Origin: Bradymonadales bacterium
GTDB lineage: Bacteria; Bdellovibrionota; UBA2394
NCBI GenBank assembly: GCA_007693605.1
Contig: REDG01000024.1
Coordinates: forward strand, 126,124 to 146,123
Direction of reading: 5' to 3'
Length of the DNA: 20,000 nt
Shown here: piece after piece, positions 1-8,720 of the stretch
Numbering within the stretch: the stretch's first letter is position 1
Layout: the number at the start of each line of letters is the position of its first letter
Notes under the pieces: generated by a model
What the model saw: only the letters and a program-made list of their open reading frames with translations
What the model was told of the DNA's origin: nothing
The model's database searches: none
Made by a program: the position numbers and the translations under genes

Positions 1-3000
1 ATCAGAACACTGAGATTTCTCGTTGGCCGCTCTCGACCTTCAAGATCAACGAAGGTCTTCTCATCTTGTAGAGCTCTAATTCTCTGAATGAAATACTCTC
101 GCGCTTCAGGGGGGGCTAAATGAAAGTCATCAAGAAAGATAAGCCCCCTCTCGCCCCCCTCTGCCGTGAGAAAGCTTTCAAAGGCTTTCTTGGCTTGCTC
201 AAAATTCAACATTCGCTCTGAAGAATTGTTTTCCTTAGAATTCGAAGTCTGCCCAAGGACTTGCGCCATATTCAAAACAAAGGCCAACTTTGTAGACTGG
301 GGAGGCTCGCCAGTCATTGAAAATATTTCAAACTCAAGAGCGGATATCAGGGTGCGAATCGCCGTGGTCTTGCTCGTACCCGTCCCCCCATAGATGATCG
401 CGGACGACTTGAGATTCCTAACCTGATCGGTAGAGAGTTGAGCTAAAAGCACTTGAATGAGTCTTTGCTTAAACTCAATTGGGCCGGTGTAACCGTGAGT
501 CTGCCACAGGTGAATAATATCCTTTCTTGAAAGAATTTTGAGATGATCCTCATCGTCTAGAAGATCCAGGTTGACGGGCATAGGAAAGACTCTTGCCAGA
601 GACTGTTCAACCAGTCTGAGATCGAGCACTCGTCTCTTGCGAATCCTCTCACTGGTGGTCATCTGAAACAAAAGCTCACTTAGAACCTTCAAGAAACTCT
701 CAAAAACAGGCATTCCATTGTCGAGAGCCAACTTCTCTGACCGATTAATCAGATAGGTGAGAATTTTATCTTCTAGCTCTTCCACACTATAGGATTTCTT
801 CTCAAAGTCCGCCACCAGGCCTTCGAGACTGACCTGAAACTGACTCATGCGGACACCGGGGTGAAGCAGTAGATTCTTTCTCGCGAATTCCAACCTGAGC
901 TCTGAGGTGGGGGGACTGAGTTTGACGACTTCAAAGAGATCAAAGACACCCATCTCATTCTCGATCGGGTGCGCTTCACGAAGCTTTTCCCAACTCTCTT
1001 CTGTTCCAATCAAGAGGGTTGATATGGGAGAGTTCGAGTCTGCAACAAAGTCAGCGGCGTCGACCCGCTGCCCCCCTGTTGCTAAGAAATACAAAATTGA
1101 GGGCGCCTGACTGAGCCTCTCTGGTTGGCGTTCTAGATCTTCACCGTCTAGCGAAACACTATTGCCAATTGCTCGACTAAGAATGAGGTCTGATGTTTCG
1201 TTCTGAGTCTTTTCCTGACGGGTCGATACGCGAGCAATCTTATCGATCGATTCGAGCAAGACCGGCGCTTTCTGATGGGTCCGAGACTCAGAAATCATAT
1301 GTCTGATATTCTCGAGAACCTCCCTTTGAGAGATCGGCTCCTCGATCTTGGGCAGCGCATAGAGCTGATACCTCCCGCTACTTTTGTGCCAAGGGCCTCC
1401 GTGAGCAGCATCTCGATGTCGATAAGCAAATGGATATTGTCCCGCATATCGAAGCAGATCTGGCGAAACAATGAGAACCACCTTTCTTGCCTTTGTGCGA
1501 ATATCTGCCAAATCATTCAGCAAATCTGGATACTCCGGAAAGACATCAGTCTGATATTCAGCGGCATTTCTGGCTCTGCGGCGCTCAGGATCAGACTCTA
1601 CCCAATCGCGAACAAGCCAATTGGAGTAAAAGCGCCCTTGAGACTCAGACAACGCCCCATCGCCCAAAGCAGCGGGTCGCAATCGAAGCTTTGGGGCGTT
1701 CCTTGTTAAGATTTGCTGACCATCGGACAGACGAATCACCCGGAAGTTAGGGTCTATGAGATCTCTTCCCGGATCCTGTGAGAAGTAGATCCCCGCATCG
1801 GGAGAGACAAAAATTCTGGAAAGAAATTCCTCTTTGGTTAGGGCCCCCTCAATATTGATCAAAGCCTTTGTGCCGTGGATCTCGAAGCGCGACTGCTCGA
1901 CATTTCCAGAATTTGACTTAATCCTTATCTCCGACAGTATAAGATATCGAATGCTTGTCTCGATGGCCTCTCCCTCCGACTGGCTAATCGACAACGCAAG
2001 TTTGAGTCCGTCAGAAGCGCTCATTCCCACCGAGGGAAACAGATGAATATCTCGAATATCTTCAAAACTCGAGTCGAGATCAATCTCAATTGGGGAGTCA
2101 ATCATCTTGGCCTCTGAATCAACGAGCAGCAATACAAGACGAGCTTTTGAAGCCGCATCTGGAAGATCGGTCAGATAGAATCCAACGATCTGAATCTCTG
2201 TTAGGGAGTTCCAACCCGTCTTCACCTTGAGATCAATGGCCAGATTCATTTCGTTTCGAATAAGGCTGGGTAGATATCCAAGCGCGGAGTCAACAGAGTC
2301 ATCACTCTTCGTAAAGTAGACTCCTGTTGGGTTGGGGCCCTCCGGTGGTCGTTCAAATTCAAAAAAACTGACTCCATCTGAAAGTGAAACTTCTCTAAGG
2401 GGTTCCAAGAAGTGATAGCTCAATCGGCCAGTCTCAAAAGTTGTCAAGACATCAACAGTCGCTGCGGTCTTCCGAAATTTTCTTTGAAAGTCTTCTGAAG
2501 AGAGGCCGACCGGCGTTTCAATATCAAAGAGCAATCGCTCTCCCGCAGCGATGATCATTCTCCTGGCCAAATCTTCTTGGGGAAAGAATTTGGGGCTTAG
2601 GTGTTGGACTCGGTGAATCTGAGATCGCCCCTCTAGATCTGAGATTTCATAAGCAACGGTCTCTGCATCTCCGGATTCAAACTGCCAAGAAACCACCAGA
2701 ACTTTGGCTTCAGCAGAGTAAGCAGCACTAAGGTCTACTAGATCGGTCGCTGCTGGTCGAATCGGCTCAATCTCAATGCTCTGCTGGCGAGACCTCTGTA
2801 CATAGGTGAACAAAACCCTCTCATCCCTCAAAACAACCAGACCTAAGCCGCTGCGAGCAGAACTGGCTACACGGCGAAAGGCCAGTTGAGGATGAGGCGC
2901 CGAAGTGGAGATCACATAGGGACTCGTCTCATCCAAAACATTTTCTTTACCTGCAAGCCACTGCACTCCTCGGGCAGCATCGTAGTAGGCATAGATGGGA

Positions 3001-3926
3001 GGACCATCTGAGCCGAGACCCACCCTCAAGGGGTGTCTCACCTCGATACGATCATGGGGAATGGATATGAGAGGCAAATAGGGATAGATCCTCCAAAACT
3101 CTTGTAGATCTGAAAGTTGATCTCCCGATTTCAGCGCCAATCGAAAAAACTCGCTCGGACTCAATCGCTCCATTAAGTCACGAAGGCTCTGCTTCCACTC
3201 AACCACAAAATCTGCCTCGTTACCTCTCTCTTGAACAGCCATCTGTAAGAGATTTCTGGAAACAAGAGCCGAGTAATTATCATGAAAAAACATGCGGCCG
3301 AATAGCTCTGAATGATCTGAAAACTCATAGTCTAAAAGCACTGGATCTCGGATGGGCCTGATTTTTCCAGACTCGAAACTCTCTTTGTTAAAAATAACGG
3401 CAAATGTAAGACCAGAACCATGAATTGAGTTTTTGGTCTTCATGGAAACGAGAACAACATAATGAGGCTCAGCTCCCATCTTAATATCAGTCCCCTCAAT
3501 TGAGACATCTTCAATGTCCTCAATCATCGGTAGGGGGATCTTCTGGCCAAGTATCGGGTCTCGTATTTGATCGATCTCAAAAATACTTTGAGGATCCTCG
3601 TCTCTCGATCGGGTGGAGAAAAAGGTGAGTCGTCCATCCAAGATACAAAGACTTTGGAAGTCATTCGCAACCCTGGGGAACTCGATGACATGCGAAAGTC
3701 CTCCGGTCACAGATTCTAAAAGAACCTCCCCCTCTAGAGCTAGGCGCCACGACCTTCCGTCTCGAATATAAATTCCTGGACTTCGACTAGATGTTCCCAT
3801 TTCATCCGGCACAGCGATCAGGTAGGGAGTCCCTGCCTGAAAGGGCGGCTCCTCTTCTCTGGTCTGAGCTGTTGACTCAAACCCGATCAGGCCAAAGAGA
3901 AGAGCTGCAAGATGCGCTCTTATCAT
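1..3926 (-). CDS. Large signal-peptide-bearing ClpA/ClpB-like AAA+ protein (>1308 aa; 3' end runs off the window)
   Basis: Not in the ORF track because its stop lies outside the window. Manual translation from ATG 3926 to base 3 shows no in-frame stop. N-terminus MIRAHLAALLFGLIGFESTA|QTREEE looks like a Sec signal, with SD-like GGGGAG about 7 nt upstream. C-terminal part has Walker A-like AIIYGGTGTSKTT (~363-401), Walker B LIFLDD (~126-143) and KTFVDLEGRERPTRNLSVL (~3-59), resembling the Clp NBD2 'D.QGR.VDF.N...I' segment. STLLIGTEESWEKL...FEVVKLSPPT (~906-1022) resembles the end of Clp NBD1. Confidence 0.8.
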   Translation of the reverse strand, partial: MIRAHLAALLFGLIGFESTAQTREEEPPFQAGTPYLIAVPDEMGTSSRSPGIYIRDGRSWRLALEGEVLLESVTGGLSHVIEFPRVANDFQSLCILDGRLTFFSTRSRDEDPQSIFEIDQIRDPILGQKIPLPMIEDIEDVSIEGTDIKMGAEPHYVVLVSMKTKNSIHGSGLTFAVIFNKESFESGKIRPIRDPVLLDYEFSDHSELFGRMFFHDNYSALVSRNLLQMAVQERGNEADFVVEWKQSLRDLMERLSPSEFFRLALKSGDQLSDLQEFWRIYPYLPLISIPHDRIEVRHPLRVGLGSDGPPIYAYYDAARGVQWLAGKENVLDETSPYVISTSAPHPQLAFRRVASSARSGLGLVVLRDERVLFTYVQRSRQQSIEIEPIRPAATDLVDLSAAYSAEAKVLVVSWQFESGDAETVAYEISDLEGRSQIHRVQHLSPKFFPQEDLARRMIIAAGERLLFDIETPVGLSSEDFQRKFRKTAATVDVLTTFETGRLSYHFLEPLREVSLSDGVSFFEFERPPEGPNPTGVYFTKSDDSVDSALGYLPSLIRNEMNLAIDLKVKTGWNSLTEIQIVGFYLTDLPDAASKARLVLLLVDSEAKMIDSPIEIDLDSSFEDIRDIHLFPSVGMSASDGLKLALSISQSEGEAIETSIRYLILSEIRIKSNSGNVEQSRFEIHGTKALINIEGALTKEEFLSRIFVSPDAGIYFSQDPGRDLIDPNFRVIRLSDGQQILTRNAPKLRLRPAALGDGALSESQGRFYSNWLVRDWVESDPERRRARNAAEYQTDVFPEYPDLLNDLADIRTKARKVVLIVSPDLLRYAGQYPFAYRHRDAAHGGPWHKSSGRYQLYALPKIEEPISQREVLENIRHMISESRTHQKAPVLLESIDKIARVSTRQEKTQNETSDLILSRAIGNSVSLDGEDLERQPERLSQAPSILYFLATGGQRVDAADFVADSNSPISTLLIGTEESWEKLREAHPIENEMGVFDLFEVVKLSPPTSELRLEFARKNLLLHPGVRMSQFQVSLEGLVADFEKKSYSVEELEDKILTYLINRSEKLALDNGMPVFESFLKVLSELLFQMTTSERIRKRRVLDLRLVEQSLARVFPMPVNLDLLDDEDHLKILSRKDIIHLWQTHGYTGPIEFKQRLIQVLLAQLSTDQVRNLKSSAIIYGGTGTSKTTAIRTLISALEFEIFSMTGEPPQSTKLAFVLNMAQVLGQTSNSKENNSSERMLNFEQAKKAFESFLTAEGGERGLIFLDDFHLAPPEAREYFIQRIRALQDEKTFVDLEGRERPTRNLSVL

Positions 3927-3929
3927 TCT

Positions 3930-6380
3930 TTATCTCCCCGGCTGCTTTTGACTTCGTAGCGCCATTGATCTCTGAATCGCCTCAATGGCGATTCTTGCGG
4001 ACTGAGGATTGTATCCGAAGTCTTGACTCAAGGTGTTTAACAGACCGTCTGCCCGCATCTGAAGATCTGGATCTTTGACCCTGCCAGTTCCCGTCGCCGC
4101 CGAAAGCAAAGAGCTCAAACTCGCATTCTCTCGAGCCAACTGTAAGTGAACATAATACTGTGTGATCGCAGCAAGAAATTCCGGATGAATTGCAGAATCA
4201 TCGGTAGAGGAATTAACACTCCATGTAAACCAAGTTCCAACCTCCTGAAAATCAAACGCACGGCCTGTAAGCTCTTGCCAAGCCCTCTTGACTCCGTCCA
4301 GTCTTTCAAAATTAATCGGAGTCTCTGCGCCCGTCGAAGGATGAAGATAATGAGTCGCCTTGGCATCACCCGATAAGGCCGTCATCTCGGCGATCATTTC
4401 ATCGTAAACGAGCGAAACAAATTCCTCACCCATCTGCCTCATATAGGCCTCACTCAGATCCCTCTCGTACTTTGGAATAATCCATCGTTGATGAATCTCT
4501 TCAGCAAGAAGAATGAGATGTCTTTGATCTTCTGGCTTAAGCCCTCGATATCGATCATCGTAAACCAAGTCCCGAATCACTTGAATGATGAGTTCCGGAG
4601 TAAGAGTGTTGTGATAGGTCGAACTGGCTGCCAACGAGAGGGCTGCCGTCCACATTCGAGCGGCAACCCGATGGTCTAAACCAAAAGTCCCCTCATCCCC
4701 TAGTCGCGACAAAGCCATCAAGTTGTGCATTCTAGCTCTTTCAATCTGAGTCTCTCCGAAATAGACTTTCAGACGGCTGATTCGATCCACCAAGTGGATA
4801 TCAGAGTCCTTCACCATCGGAAATTGCTGAGCGAGACGAATATCATTCAGATTGAACTGCATTCGAGACAGAGACATGATTGCAGCCATGAACTCCAAAC
4901 TATGCGGCCCGATCTCAATAGGAGAGTGCTCAGGGTTTCCATAAGCCAACGCGAATCTTCGGTGTGTTGTAGCAGGCCTCTTTCCAAATTCTCTGCTTGG
5001 AACGAGCCGGAAAACAGACTTGCCCCTCACTTCGACCCAGTCTGCCCCAGACTCTCCCAATGGCCGCATCCAAAGCGGATTCGTTTCCATCGCCAGAAGC
5101 TGCATATTAGAAATCGGATCGATCAGAGAATTCATAGGGATAGGCAGAATTCTGCTGAGCAGAGGAGAGTTGGGATCTCTTTCCTCTAGCTCTTTTAGCT
5201 CCCTCGTATTCGTGGCTCCAAGGAATAGAATGTCAATCGGTACCGTGACCCCCGCCGCAATATCAACTCGATGACTAGAGACCAAATTCAATAGTTTTGC
5301 AAAGAAAGCCGGATGATTCTTTAAGAGCTCATCGAAGTAGATCACGCCGCCATTGGCAAGCGGAATGATTCCATAGTCCCAGGCAAAGGGATCATTGATG
5401 CCCGCCCTCATCGCATGAATCGCATTGGGTCGGCCAAAGATTTCCGAATCTCTTGGCTCGTCGCCTTGTTGTGCAATCAGGGGAAGCGTGGTGGAATCAC
5501 CTAGAATCAGCCTCTTGATCCGAATATGTTTTGAAAGAACGCTTACAATTTCTTCATCACTAAGAGTCTCGCCCTTTTCCGCTTCGTAGTGGGCAATGAT
5601 TTCTGCTCGAATTGCAGCTGACTTTGGATTCGGCTGCCGTTTGGGGTTAGGATCTTGATGAAGTTCAATATAAACTCTTGATCGATGTTCTGCAAGAATG
5701 GCCTCCTGATACGAGTCCGGAAGAAGACTAAATGGAGAGTCGTTGATTGGATCTGCAAATGCTCTTGGGCTTTCCGCCTTCACAAACTCTGACGGAAGTC
5801 GATTTTTTAAACTGGGAATTTTGGACAGATCGACCCACTCAAAAGTGTAGGCAAAGTGCTTTGGAACTCTCATCGTCGCGTTCGACATAGATGTTCTCAG
5901 ATGCTCAAGAATAAAGGACTTTCCACTGCCGGGTACGCCGACCAACATGGGCATATCTCTGCCGGAAGCGCCTCCCGAGGCTGCGGCCTTGATTGCTTCG
6001 ACTAGCTGAGCGGCCGCCTGCTCTTGACCCACTAAAAATTTACCATCCGCTAGATCGTGAGCAGTGGAGAGTAGATTGTAGACCTTATGCTTCCGGCTAC
6101 CCGTAAAGGGATCGACTTTCTCTTCGACGCCAGCGGAAAGAAACAAATGGAGTAGCGTTTGTGGGCTCGACATGATGGTCCATGGGTGATTGGCAATGAA
6201 GCTCTCGGGACCAGCCTCAAGAAGAACCTCAAGGTCATGTCGCTCCTTATCAGCGACTCGACGATAATCGATGGAGTCCCCCCGGATGACGATGTTTTCA
6301 ACACTGACCCGACACTTATCCGATGCATCAACTCCTGCGATCAAACCGGCTAATACAAAAAAATAGGCAAAATTTTTCAC
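3930..6380 (-). CDS. prkA: PrkA/YeaG-family AAA+ (serine kinase/ATPase-like) protein with N-terminal signal peptide, ~816 aa
   Basis: Collinear PrkA motifs: GQEQAAAQLVEAIKAAA, Walker A MLVGVPGSGKS, PINDSPFSLLP, DPFAWDYG..PLANGGVIYFDELLK (Walker B), GATN, LLSRI (arginine finger region), IGPHSLE...LSRM, RLKVYFGE, DEGTFGLDHR. Start placed at GTG 6380 rather than 6407 because GGGGAGAGGG lies just upstream and this gives MKNFAYFFVLAGLIAGVDA|SDKC. Confidence 0.85.
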   Translation of the reverse strand: MKNFAYFFVLAGLIAGVDASDKCRVSVENIVIRGDSIDYRRVADKERHDLEVLLEAGPESFIANHPWTIMSSPQTLLHLFLSAGVEEKVDPFTGSRKHKVYNLLSTAHDLADGKFLVGQEQAAAQLVEAIKAAASGGASGRDMPMLVGVPGSGKSFILEHLRTSMSNATMRVPKHFAYTFEWVDLSKIPSLKNRLPSEFVKAESPRAFADPINDSPFSLLPDSYQEAILAEHRSRVYIELHQDPNPKRQPNPKSAAIRAEIIAHYEAEKGETLSDEEIVSVLSKHIRIKRLILGDSTTLPLIAQQGDEPRDSEIFGRPNAIHAMRAGINDPFAWDYGIIPLANGGVIYFDELLKNHPAFFAKLLNLVSSHRVDIAAGVTVPIDILFLGATNTRELKELEERDPNSPLLSRILPIPMNSLIDPISNMQLLAMETNPLWMRPLGESGADWVEVRGKSVFRLVPSREFGKRPATTHRRFALAYGNPEHSPIEIGPHSLEFMAAIMSLSRMQFNLNDIRLAQQFPMVKDSDIHLVDRISRLKVYFGETQIERARMHNLMALSRLGDEGTFGLDHRVAARMWTAALSLAASSTYHNTLTPELIIQVIRDLVYDDRYRGLKPEDQRHLILLAEEIHQRWIIPKYERDLSEAYMRQMGEEFVSLVYDEMIAEMTALSGDAKATHYLHPSTGAETPINFERLDGVKRAWQELTGRAFDFQEVGTWFTWSVNSSTDDSAIHPEFLAAITQYYVHLQLARENASLSSLLSAATGTGRVKDPDLQMRADGLLNTLSQDFGYNPQSARIAIEAIQRSMALRSQKQPGR

Positions 6381-6653
6381 CAATCCCTCTCCCCTCACTA
6401 GTTGCACCTATAAGATTTAGTGAAGCTCGCTGTAATGCGTCAAGAAGACTTATGCGACGCGATGCGCTAATAAGCTCGTGGTACTGAAAAAAATGCAGAC
6501 TAGATTAAATTGCAGGCCTCCCCTCAGAATCAGAACCAAGCTCTCAAATCTGAATCTCTAATTTCAGAGGCAACTTTTTTTACTCGAACTATCTCGACCA
6601 TTTGAGACTCTTTACGACTGCCCAGCGAAGATCGAACGAAGGATAATGACATC

Positions 6654-8720
6654 ATGCGTTACGATACTCTGCGGCCTATGCACAAAACATCCCAAAGAGG
6701 CTTTGCTCTAGGGATTGTCATCATGACGATCGTCTTGAGTCTCTCTCTGGCTCTCGTTTACTTGAATCGTTCTCACCTTCAACTTTCTATCTCTGGCATC
6801 CACTCTGACAGTGTGATTGCAAACTTTCAAATGGAAGCCGCCTATGAAGAGGCAAGAAACTTTCTAGAGATCGCCGTTGAAGACATCCGAATGGATGGGG
6901 CCTTCCAGCTACACCCCTCCACTCCTAGTACCGACTCAATTTCAAACCTGAATGCTGTTTACGGAGGATCTCCAGCCGCCGCATTGAACTTTCTTCGACA
7001 TGCGGTCGAATCCCAGTCGATTGATACATCTGGAGTCATGGATCCAACTCACCCCCATTTTGATTTTGATACGGCCTTCAGTTCAGATTGGACCCCTTTC
7101 AATACTCAAGATGCCATCATGGAGAGGCGCTACTCCTTTGAAGCCAGAGCGCCTATTGTTGAAACTTTTGGTGGAAATCCAAGCATCTTTTTTCAATATG
7201 ATTACACCCTAGAAGTTCGTGCTTACGGAACAAGCCATTTCTCTCAAGCCGCTTCTCAAGAAAAGGGGGTGATCTCCATTCTTCTCTCACGAGCACCCTT
7301 CTCTCGGTTTGCTCTGTTTCGATCACAGAACCGAAACCAAGACGGCAATATTTTGGTCTTTGCGGGGGGAGACACCTCGGCCCAAATTCAGGAGGTCTTC
7401 TCGGGCCCTGTTCACCTGAATCAATCGCCTATCTTTTACGGGGCGCCTGTCTTTTTGGATGTCTTCACCTCTGGTGCTGCTCAATCGAGCTGGCAACAGA
7501 TGTCCGTCTCTGGATACTCAGGAACCGCCGTCTTTCACAATCAAGCGCTGGGAGATCAAGAGACCATGGAGCTCCCAACGGAGGTGAACAATGTGATTCG
7601 ACTTGCGGTCGGAGATTCCTCACCAAATGCCGCCTTTGACAACACTCCTCTGAGCAGCGGAGAACTGGTCAACTTTCTTAGAGAGACTCCCGGCTACACT
7701 CTGCCAGGAAGCGCAATAAGCATCCCGCCAGGTGTTCACATTCCAGTGAGTGACCAAACTAACCTGGTGCCGAAGGGGGGCGTCTATATTGAAGGGGACA
7801 GCAATGTAAGACTGAATGTCGTTCAGGGTGAAAGTGACTTTGCTCCTGAGCGCTGGGCTCAGATTTCTTCGAGCGACCAAGCCTGCAAGTTTCAGAAGAT
7901 GCTGATTGAACACCATGATGATGTGAGTCTCAGTCGCGAAATTTACATTGCGGATGAACCCTGTAACTCAACTTATGTTTTCACTCCCGACCCCACCGCA
8001 TTGCCCCATGTGTTGGCGGGACGAATCAACGGCAATGTTCACGCCAATGGAAAAATCGATCAGCTCGGGGGCGAGTCTCGGACCAGACCCGCGATCGCCA
8101 CAGACTTTGGCTTTACGGTCTCCGCAAAAAAAGAAGTTCGAATTGTGAATGACATACAGTACGAAGACTCCTTTTATCACTCGATGGATTCTGATGGAAA
8201 TGTCAGCTACGCTCCCGTCGCAACTCCTTGGGGTGACATCGACGGATCGGGCATCCATCCAACCGATCAAAATGTACTCCCAAAGATTAACTCTGAATCT
8301 AAGACGGTCTTGGGGATCCTCTCGACTCACAAAAATGTACTTTTGCATATCGATGCCCCCGCGAACTTAAATCTTCATGCCGCCATCTTTGCAGGAAATC
8401 CGAATCACTACGACTCAAGCACTGACCTTGGCTGTGGAGCAAACCACGCCAATCAGAGGGGCTGCGGCTTTGGAAACGAAGGTTGGAACACCAATACCGG
8501 CATGGGAAGCTTCAAGTTCTTGGGCAGCATTTCTGAATATCGCTCGCAATCGATGGGTAGAACTTCAAACCCTCCAACGGGCTATCAGCGCCGCCTCGCT
8601 TACGATCAACGCTTTCTAGAGGATCTTGTGCCGCCCGCCTATCCCCTCTCAGAGAGCCTTCAAGCTTTTTCTCGTGTGGAAAGATTTCGAGCCTGGCGGC
8701 TGGTTCAGGCAGAAGATTGA
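6654..8720 (+). CDS. Large PilX-like type IV minor pilin / pilus-tip protein (possibly DUF4900-like)
   Basis: Class III prepilin-type leader SQRG|FALGIVIMTIVLSLSLALVYL with no Glu at +5, as in PilX/GspK. Followed by PilX-like AAYEEA. FSRFALF...FSGPVHLN...FYGAPVF and C-terminal FLGSISE...GYQRRLAYDQRF...PPAYP resemble large PilX-like proteins as I recall them. Alternative start ATG 6678. Confidence 0.7.
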   Translation: MRYDTLRPMHKTSQRGFALGIVIMTIVLSLSLALVYLNRSHLQLSISGIHSDSVIANFQMEAAYEEARNFLEIAVEDIRMDGAFQLHPSTPSTDSISNLNAVYGGSPAAALNFLRHAVESQSIDTSGVMDPTHPHFDFDTAFSSDWTPFNTQDAIMERRYSFEARAPIVETFGGNPSIFFQYDYTLEVRAYGTSHFSQAASQEKGVISILLSRAPFSRFALFRSQNRNQDGNILVFAGGDTSAQIQEVFSGPVHLNQSPIFYGAPVFLDVFTSGAAQSSWQQMSVSGYSGTAVFHNQALGDQETMELPTEVNNVIRLAVGDSSPNAAFDNTPLSSGELVNFLRETPGYTLPGSAISIPPGVHIPVSDQTNLVPKGGVYIEGDSNVRLNVVQGESDFAPERWAQISSSDQACKFQKMLIEHHDDVSLSREIYIADEPCNSTYVFTPDPTALPHVLAGRINGNVHANGKIDQLGGESRTRPAIATDFGFTVSAKKEVRIVNDIQYEDSFYHSMDSDGNVSYAPVATPWGDIDGSGIHPTDQNVLPKINSESKTVLGILSTHKNVLLHIDAPANLNLHAAIFAGNPNHYDSSTDLGCGANHANQRGCGFGNEGWNTNTGMGSFKFLGSISEYRSQSMGRTSNPPTGYQRRLAYDQRFLEDLVPPAYPLSESLQAFSRVERFRAWRLVQAED

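Follow-up and report, generated by a model that had tools for sequence, protein, structure and literature searches.

A conserved operon of Bdellovibrionota encodes a leader-bearing variant of the PrkA-YeaH-SpoVR module and a Clp-derived giant protein

Introduction

YeaG (PrkA), YeaH and YcgB (SpoVR) are reported to be cofit in six bacteria (10.1101/072470), and Bdellovibrio bacteriovorus is described as having an ordinary prkA-yeaH-spoVR operon among its attack-phase genes (PMC5430801). The canonical PrkA of Bacillus subtilis is reported to be an ATPase, not a kinase, with protease activity (PMC9512850), whereas for the Bacillus anthracis protein protease activity is reported as not found (PMC13001217). 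Binding of a AAA+ ring to a vWA partner has been described for NorQ/NorD (PMC9976466). Here we describe an operon that lies partly in a 20,000-nucleotide stretch of DNA from a bacterium of the Bdellovibrionota (G000:C42:126124-146123, called the window below). It contains an entire PrkA-YeaH-SpoVR module, its first gene being of the PrkA type and its third a fusion of SpoVR and DUF444 (YeaH), together with a giant gene of apparent Clp descent.

The operon is real and conserved and is a variant of a known module; it is also a possible pointer to a delivery signal that has not been described. What is added here is a terminal cysteine tag, the genome-wide class of proteins that carry it, and the anatomy of the giant, with its dead first AAA module (D1).

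Results

Operon layout and distribution

Gene 1 (window 3930..6380, minus strand) starts with GTG and encodes a PrkA/YeaG-type AAA+ ATPase of 816 residues, identified by its Pfam domains and a PDB profile match. Gene 2, an open reading frame (ORF) assigned as Clp-derived by profile comparison, encodes 1796 residues in full; its in-window part occupies positions 1..3926 of the minus strand, and it runs 1464 bases past the left window edge, to G000:C42:124659. Gene 3 (G000:C42:121534-124689, minus strand, outside the window) encodes, by Pfam match, a SpoVR-YeaH (DUF444/vWA) fusion of 1051 residues, its start region overlapping the end of gene 2 by 31 nucleotides. The junction between genes 1 and 2 reads TAA AGA ATG, and a purine-rich Shine-Dalgarno (SD)-like run is present upstream of each. 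Since the SD-like GAGGGGAGAGGG (6385..6396, minus strand) lies ahead of GTG 6380, this codon is preferred over GTG 6407 as the start of gene 1. The first-pass annotation of the window had described two large co-oriented ORFs with a 3-nucleotide gap and SD-like runs as a two-gene operon; both ORFs are present on the minus strand as described and the pair stands, but the operon does not end with it, as the third leader-bearing gene adjoins.

Read depth over the operon is flat with zero differences, as judged from one covering contig that may itself be the source data, and an assembly artefact is excluded as far as testable. Promoter and terminator scans of the operon gave results at or below chance. 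Two metatranscriptomes yielded 0 reads, a result that carries no weight as to expression.

Homologs were gathered by profile search among 401 Bdellovibrionota genomes (word-indexed searches gave 2 and 4 relatives, a contig scan 4 loci); relatives from the same family bear the label Bdellovibrionota. The SpoVR-YeaH fusion occurs in 36/401 genomes from 14 families, with 0/55 in family f8 and 4/107 in f10. For comparison, 38 loci from 36 genomes were used, a partial match in G392 being left out and G011 added. At 27 of the 38 loci the order of the three genes is unchanged; one of these has a split giant, and in another a contig end truncates PrkA. The remaining 11 comprise three loci without the giant, one with a divergent prkA and seven cut by contig ends. 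The two-gene form without the giant is found at L058, L062 and L070, and prkA lies on the opposite strand at L069. At L066 the giant consists of two ORFs, and at L039 a stop near the start interrupts the fusion. In two genomes the whole operon is present twice, as diverged copies (L038 and L041 in G032; L072 and L073 in G053).

Predicted Sec leaders

Leaders were called with a hydropathy heuristic at a score cut-off of 1.9, from starts chosen by a script that is biased toward hydrophobic leaders. The predicted Sec leader of gene 1 spans residues 1-19 (6324..6380, minus strand; cleavage between VDA and S) and that of gene 2 residues 1-20 (3867..3926, minus strand; cleavage between STA and Q). 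Both have uncharged 10-residue cores, with mean hydropathies of 2.61 and 2.53, and read as they had been quoted at first. Gene 3 has a predicted leader with a mean core hydropathy of 2.95 and cleavage between AEA and H. In all three proteins the uncharged hydrophobic core is short and no later segment rises above a hydropathy of 1.75; by this heuristic each has the n-h-c architecture and small-x-Ala site of a leader cleaved by signal peptidase I (Sec/SPI). The Tat substrate reading was rejected, as none of the three proteins contains a twin-arginine motif, and so was the lipoprotein (Sec/SPII) reading, a lipobox being present at the conserved cysteine in 1/64 proteins.

Leaders scoring at least 1.9 are kept at 93 of 94 intact N-termini from the 38 loci (PrkA 30/30, giant 28/28, fusion 35/36), and for the single miss, a fusion, a weaker leader is visible from an upstream start. 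Canonical PrkA, given the same free choice of start, reached a like score in 0/30 cases; the leaders of the operon proteins are therefore not due to chance. When all cluster representatives were searched with a profile, 113 full-length fusions emerged, a set that overlaps the 38 loci; 103 of them begin with a leader.

A terminal cysteine motif

A terminal cysteine outside any lipobox, mostly of the C-x-x-x-Leu type, is present in 99 of 100 operon proteins. It follows the leader in PrkA (30/30) and in the fusions (35/36), and falls within the last 30 residues of the giants (34/34). Where it follows the leader, it lies 4-51 residues (median 14) past the hydrophobic core. In gene 1 the motif reads C-R-V-S-V (6300..6314, minus strand) and begins with Cys23, the sole cysteine of the protein; Cys28 is likewise the sole cysteine of mature gene 3. 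The C-terminal motif of gene 2, F-x3-C1785-x2-W-I, is encoded beyond the left window edge.

The motif was also counted genome-wide, using our own gene calls, leader proteins other than lipoproteins, and a post hoc filter for a "lone" cysteine. With this filter, lone terminal cysteines are found N-terminally in 31/385 leader proteins versus 21/780 other proteins, and C-terminally in 20/385 versus 9/780.

The leader-bearing PrkA retains its ATPase residues

Gene 1 narrowly passes both Pfam PrkA models (AAA_PrkA, 29.7 bits with a cut-off of 25; PrkA, 25.4 bits with a cut-off of 25), upholding its first identification as PrkA/YeaG-like, and the alignment profile of its family matches PDB entry 9xip with an E-value of 7e-115. 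The NCBIfam PrkA equivalog NF011999 gave 12.3 bits, below its threshold of 576. By alignment, the Walker A motif is GVPGSGKS (residues 148-155; 5916..5939, minus strand), and the protein also keeps Walker B residues Asp350 and Glu351, sensor Asn391, the arginine finger Arg410, and Arg571. In the putatively exported PrkAs of 30 loci, the Walker A lysine, the sensor asparagine, the arginine finger and the second conserved arginine are each present in 30/30, the Walker B aspartate in 26/30 and the glutamate in 28/30. Mean identity across 22 genomes is 25% among exported PrkAs versus 71% among canonical ones, and exported and canonical copies are 16-21% identical. Retention of the ATPase residues at a mean identity of 25% argues for real ATP turnover. 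Distances between exported copies follow those between canonical copies weakly (Mantel p 0.095; tree without outgroup), which is compatible with transfer or with hidden paralogy.

The genome has an ordinary, leaderless prkA-yeaH-spoVR set elsewhere, on contig C30, and also a canonical clpB, so the signal-less copies that the first-pass annotation thought worth looking for do exist. A third PrkA-profile match, on contig C5, was set aside, as it reads as a Lon protease from its motifs. Canonical prkA is kept in 36/36 genomes with the fusion, leaving the exported copy free for another job. The original interpretation, diverged ATPases exported to a place where ATP exists, is partly supported, and none of the testable findings that it named as contradicting it, such as homologs lacking leaders or the operon holding the only housekeeping copies, was obtained.

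The SpoVR-YeaH fusion keeps its metal-site and MIDAS residues

The gene 3 product matches the Pfam models SpoVR (86 bits) and DUF444 (89 bits), and contains an acidic linker followed by a vWA domain that bears a MIDAS motif. Among 30 fusions, MIDAS residues Asp880, Ser884 and Asp969 are present in 30/30, Ser882 in 27/30 and Thr939 in 28/30. In the SpoVR part, His147, His151, Glu299 and Glu119 are each conserved in 30/30, and a valine takes the place of the catalytic glutamate of an HExxH motif. The His147/His151/Glu299 arrangement may resemble a gluzincin-like metal site. The linker-vWA part gives a weak match to the cobaltochelatase model TIGR02442 (E 0.003). From this conservation, and that of gene 1, we infer a machine that continues to turn over ATP and to bind metals.

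The giant is Clp-derived but not a ClpA or ClpB

The N-terminal half of gene 2 (residues 21-765; 1632..3866, minus strand) is probably built of three beta-rich repeats that belong to no known family; in a self profile comparison, two repeat pairs match with probabilities of 87% and 81%, and the third pair with 5%. No Pfam family is shared among 24 members over these N-terminal 745 residues, and the ESM Atlas offered nothing usable for this half or for the SpoVR part of gene 3. A PDB sequence search gave no convincing match for the whole giant or the whole fusion, and gene 2 matched 0 NCBIfam families.

The C-terminal half contains two tandem AAA modules in the order found in Clp. Its profile, built from 27 homologs, has ClpC, Hsp104 and ClpA as best PDB matches (E 3.6e-7), and the giant aligns to ClpB over 573 columns with a probability of 97.4%. 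In the first AAA module (432..1631, minus strand) alignment to ClpB D1 places NPVLIGEPGVGK opposite KAPVLLESIDK, a degenerate Walker A, and the consensus of the 27 giants holds one Walker A only. This module is duplicated in giants of about 2070-2300 residues, the second copy being dead as well; the insert of the eight long forms compared matches it with a probability of 99.8%. The aligned second module runs from Walker A GGTGTSKT (residues 1180-1187) to Walker B Asp1266-Asp1267 (126..389, minus strand). Its G, K, DD, N and R residues are invariant among 27 homologs, and Walker A, sensor asparagine and arginine finger are retained; the Walker B is DD in 27/27 giants, where Clp has DE, and opposite the GYVG pore loop of ClpB the giants have a gap or a variable loop. 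Judged by these alignments, the giant is Clp-derived and not a ClpA/B, its first AAA module dead and its second intact. The label "ClpA/B-like" given to it earlier is thus right as to ancestry and no further, with the D1 Walker A lost and a D2 that has DD and no GYVG loop.

Other proteins with a leader and a terminal cysteine

Pfam families were searched (E <= 1e-5) in 54 of the 77 other carriers of the motif, seven hand-added proteins being left uncounted, and in 130 of 316 leader proteins without it. Classed by our own judgement as cytoplasm-type or envelope-type, cytoplasm-type domains occur in 8/13 named carriers versus 1/61 named controls (Fisher p 7e-7). The eight are AAA, ATP-grasp, GNAT, NUDIX, two DnaJ, SLOG and a sigma-type helix-turn-helix (HTH); the other five named carriers are MsrA (a false leader), Wzi, a binding protein, GDPD and DUF5715. 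The sole cytoplasm-type control is Asd, also with a false leader, and if four membrane enzymes are classed as cytoplasmic too, the control count becomes 5/61 (p 8e-5).

An ATP-grasp ligase with leader and cysteine is encoded at L110:304-1794 (G000:C42:11523-12911). Of 20 loci of its family, nine have a leader and the cysteine, ten are leaderless and one is a membrane fusion without the cysteine; the ten leaderless loci lack the tag, apart from one internal match. As it includes tagged members alongside leaderless ones, this family is a natural test of the tag. A 775-residue HTH and metallophosphoesterase protein with leader and cysteine is encoded at L076:304-2628 (G000:C71:11999-14347); it has relatives in 24/201 genomes, and a leader with a nearby cysteine is present in 20/20 of those compared, in the strict pattern in 16. 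A leader-bearing AAA ATPase of 823 residues with a lone cysteine (Pfam AAA, E 2e-21) lies at L078:1620-4088 (G000:C8:13606-16077), and none of 200 other genomes has a full-length relative of it. The SLOG protein has one relative, with a leader and a C-terminal cysteine that misses the strict pattern. Leader and cysteine are also found on two DnaJ-domain proteins, a NUDIX and a GNAT protein, and proteins with a weak sigma-70 region 2/4 and a weak nucleotidyltransferase match (L089:301-1656, L086:304-1332, L081:301-891, L087:229-930, L093:304-1362 and L095:304-984). A further such protein, at G000:C16:48041-49609, escaped the filter; the census of tagged proteins is therefore a lower bound.

Divergent to the operon, the window encodes a 688-residue protein with a pilin-like N-terminus and a DUF4900 match (6654-8720, plus strand); this gene does not neighbour the operon in 10 other loci inspected.

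Discussion

Proposed mechanism and its difficulties

We would put about even weight on the operon encoding a Sec-exported AAA+/vWA remodelling machine that is delivered, by way of the cysteine motif, into the ATP-containing cytoplasm of prey. Sec export by itself ends in the periplasm, and the periplasm is poor in ATP. Because the cargo needs ATP, acetyl-CoA or DNA, onward delivery to the prey cytoplasm would be the best explanation. All three proteins would first be exported by Sec and lose their leaders. The lone cysteine helix, then placed N-terminally in mature PrkA and the mature SpoVR-YeaH fusion and C-terminally in the giant, could act as a cargo tag, used for sorting or tethering and recognised by one common machine in the periplasm, for which the genome offers type II secretion, Tad and type IVa pilus systems as candidates. 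Within the prey, PrkA may form an ATP-hydrolysing ring and grip the vWA/MIDAS domain, much as MoxR rings do with their vWA partners, thereby driving the SpoVR metal-site domain joined to it or a prey complex bound there. The giant would be an optional scaffold or substrate catcher that switches slowly with nucleotide and, unlike ClpB, does no threading. Most likely, protein complexes of the prey would end up dismantled or reprogrammed during feeding.

The genome, which is 90% complete, has four secretins, including type II, Tad and pilus types; neither VipB of a type VI nor VirB4 of a type IV secretion system was found in it. A search for an ATP/ADP translocase gave no signal in the genome, its controls being silent too. 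A contractile-injection-like locus at G000:C16:54279-76558 has two sheath genes, and we take further ORFs there to be tube-, baseplate- and VgrG-like, with two AAA ATPases. Cargo of contractile systems is loaded in the cytoplasm of the producer, for which reason this locus is judged unlikely to be the carrier.

Several points weigh against delivery to prey by way of the cysteine motif. We know of no route that carries Sec-exported folded proteins into the cytoplasm of another bacterium. Predation is placed at the level of a largely predatory group, and the source family is uncultured. The operon is rare (36/401 genomes, and 0/55 in f8) and therefore not core to predation, and the giant is absent from 3/38 loci. 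The strict cysteine pattern is found in 81 of 113 full-length fusion clusters, and at least 8 of the 113, with a full leader, have no cysteine in the post-leader segment scored. The motif is loose: its genome-wide enrichment vanishes without the "lone" filter (p 0.40 and 0.14 for the two termini), and a position-weight matrix of it separated exported from cytoplasmic proteins poorly. Among the scanned carriers 35/54 have no family at all, and the classing of the others is ours. The biochemistry of canonical PrkA is itself in dispute in what its published accounts report (PMC9512850, PMC13001217).

More tentatively, and with somewhat less than even confidence, the operon may be the largest cargo of an undescribed Bdellovibrionota route, in which a Sec leader and a lone terminal Cys-x-x-x-Leu helix tag dozens of cytoplasm-type enzymes per genome for the cytoplasm of living prey. 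The tagged enzymes would include AAA+ motors, ATP-grasp ligases, acetyltransferases, DnaJ, NUDIX and DNA-binding proteins, and the operon machine would be assembled inside the prey.

Alternative explanations

The alternative that survives best, though we consider it rather unlikely, is that the exported proteins stay in the periplasm or on the surface of the predator, as a scaffold, a nucleotide sensor or a motor running on ATP leaking out where predator and prey meet, with the cysteines forming inter-subunit disulfides. Sec leaders alone reach the periplasm only, one terminal cysteine per subunit would suit such bonds, and the first AAA module of the giant is dead, with DD as Walker B; the vWA/MIDAS fold is also described in Bdellovibrio adhesins (PMC12428579). 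However, the hydrolysis residues of PrkA are all kept despite 25% identity, and leader and cysteine occur on unrelated single genes whose products need ATP, acetyl-CoA or DNA and have no such operon partner, whereas most ordinary envelope proteins of this genome are without the combination.

It is improbable that the proteins enter prey as mimics, co-assembling with the PrkA-YeaH-YcgB and Clp rings of the prey and poisoning or redirecting them. The giant would fit such a role as a Clp-like subunit whose D1 is dead, whose Walker B is DD and which lacks the GYVG loop, and so would the fast divergence, with distances tied weakly to the canonical copy (Mantel p 0.095), and the target module was found in Escherichia coli, B. 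subtilis and others used as search controls. An identity to canonical PrkA of 16-21%, however, makes mixed rings unlikely, and the full partner set is co-encoded and fused, as expected of a self-sufficient machine.

Least probable is a machine at the cytoplasmic face of the predator membrane, its hydrophobic N-termini being membrane anchors that stay uncleaved or products of mis-called starts: the heuristic calling of leaders from starts biased toward them leaves room for this, and its ATP supply needs no special explanation, but the cores are short, with basic n-regions, small-x-Ala ends and SD-like runs at the leader starts, equal freedom of start gave 0/30 in canonical PrkA, and 103/113 full-length fusions, with starts called by the database, begin with such a leader.

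Significance

Machines for delivery into the prey cytoplasm by Bdellovibrionota are called hypothesised or of unclear function in a review (PMC12428579). If delivery by the cysteine motif is true, a short and portable tag would make it testable by reporter fusions and effector repertoires would become readable from genomes; if the machine is periplasmic instead, it would join the rare ATP-dependent systems that work outside the cytoplasm. Either way, the SpoVR-YeaH fusion, with its conserved metal and MIDAS residues, offers a handle on the unsettled biochemistry of canonical PrkA-YeaH-SpoVR. In the literature covered, which left supplementary gene lists and most subscription papers out of scope, no leader-bearing PrkA, SpoVR-YeaH fusion or terminal cysteine tag was found for Bdellovibrionota. 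The one mention of SpoVR in the Bdellovibrio papers covered refers to the ordinary operon (PMC5430801). The main text of a comparative genomics study of the phylum (PMC11656739) mentions no PrkA, SpoVR, signal peptide or cysteine, and the accessible portions of PMC11495043 and PMC12419801 contain nothing on such an operon or tag.

Comparison with known systems

Like the canonical module of PrkA/YeaG, YeaH/YhbH (DUF444) and SpoVR/YcgB, the operon unites the same three domains, and the ATPase, MIDAS and SpoVR His/Glu residues are kept. It differs in having a leader and a terminal cysteine on every subunit, where canonical PrkA is leaderless, in fusing SpoVR and YeaH in reverse order, and in the insertion of the giant Clp-derived gene. 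Its PrkA is always a second copy, sharing 16-21% identity with the canonical one in that genome.

With the class 1 Clp/Hsp100 proteins (ClpA, ClpB and ClpC) the giant shares two tandem AAA modules collinear with those of ClpB. Unlike them, it has beta-rich repeats instead of the Clp N-domain and lacks, in alignment, the middle coiled coil; it is also without the D1 Walker A and the GYVG loop, and has a DD Walker B, a leader and about 350 extra C-terminal residues.

As in the MoxR AAA+/vWA pairs (NorQ-NorD) and the ATP-driven chelatases (CobST-N), a AAA+ motor stands beside a vWA/MIDAS partner that has an acidic linker. In the operon, by contrast, the motor is of the PrkA family and the partners are predicted to be exported; by analogy with those pairs, the PrkA ring may bind the vWA domain.

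Sec leaders are, finally, a trait shared with the secreted predation enzymes of Bdellovibrio, namely Sec-dependent hydrolases and the MIDAS adhesin Bd0875, as these are described (PMC12622784, PMC12428579), and the phylum is common to both. Whereas those proteins are envelope enzymes and adhesins independent of cofactors, the operon proteins need ATP or cytoplasmic cofactors and carry the terminal cysteine.

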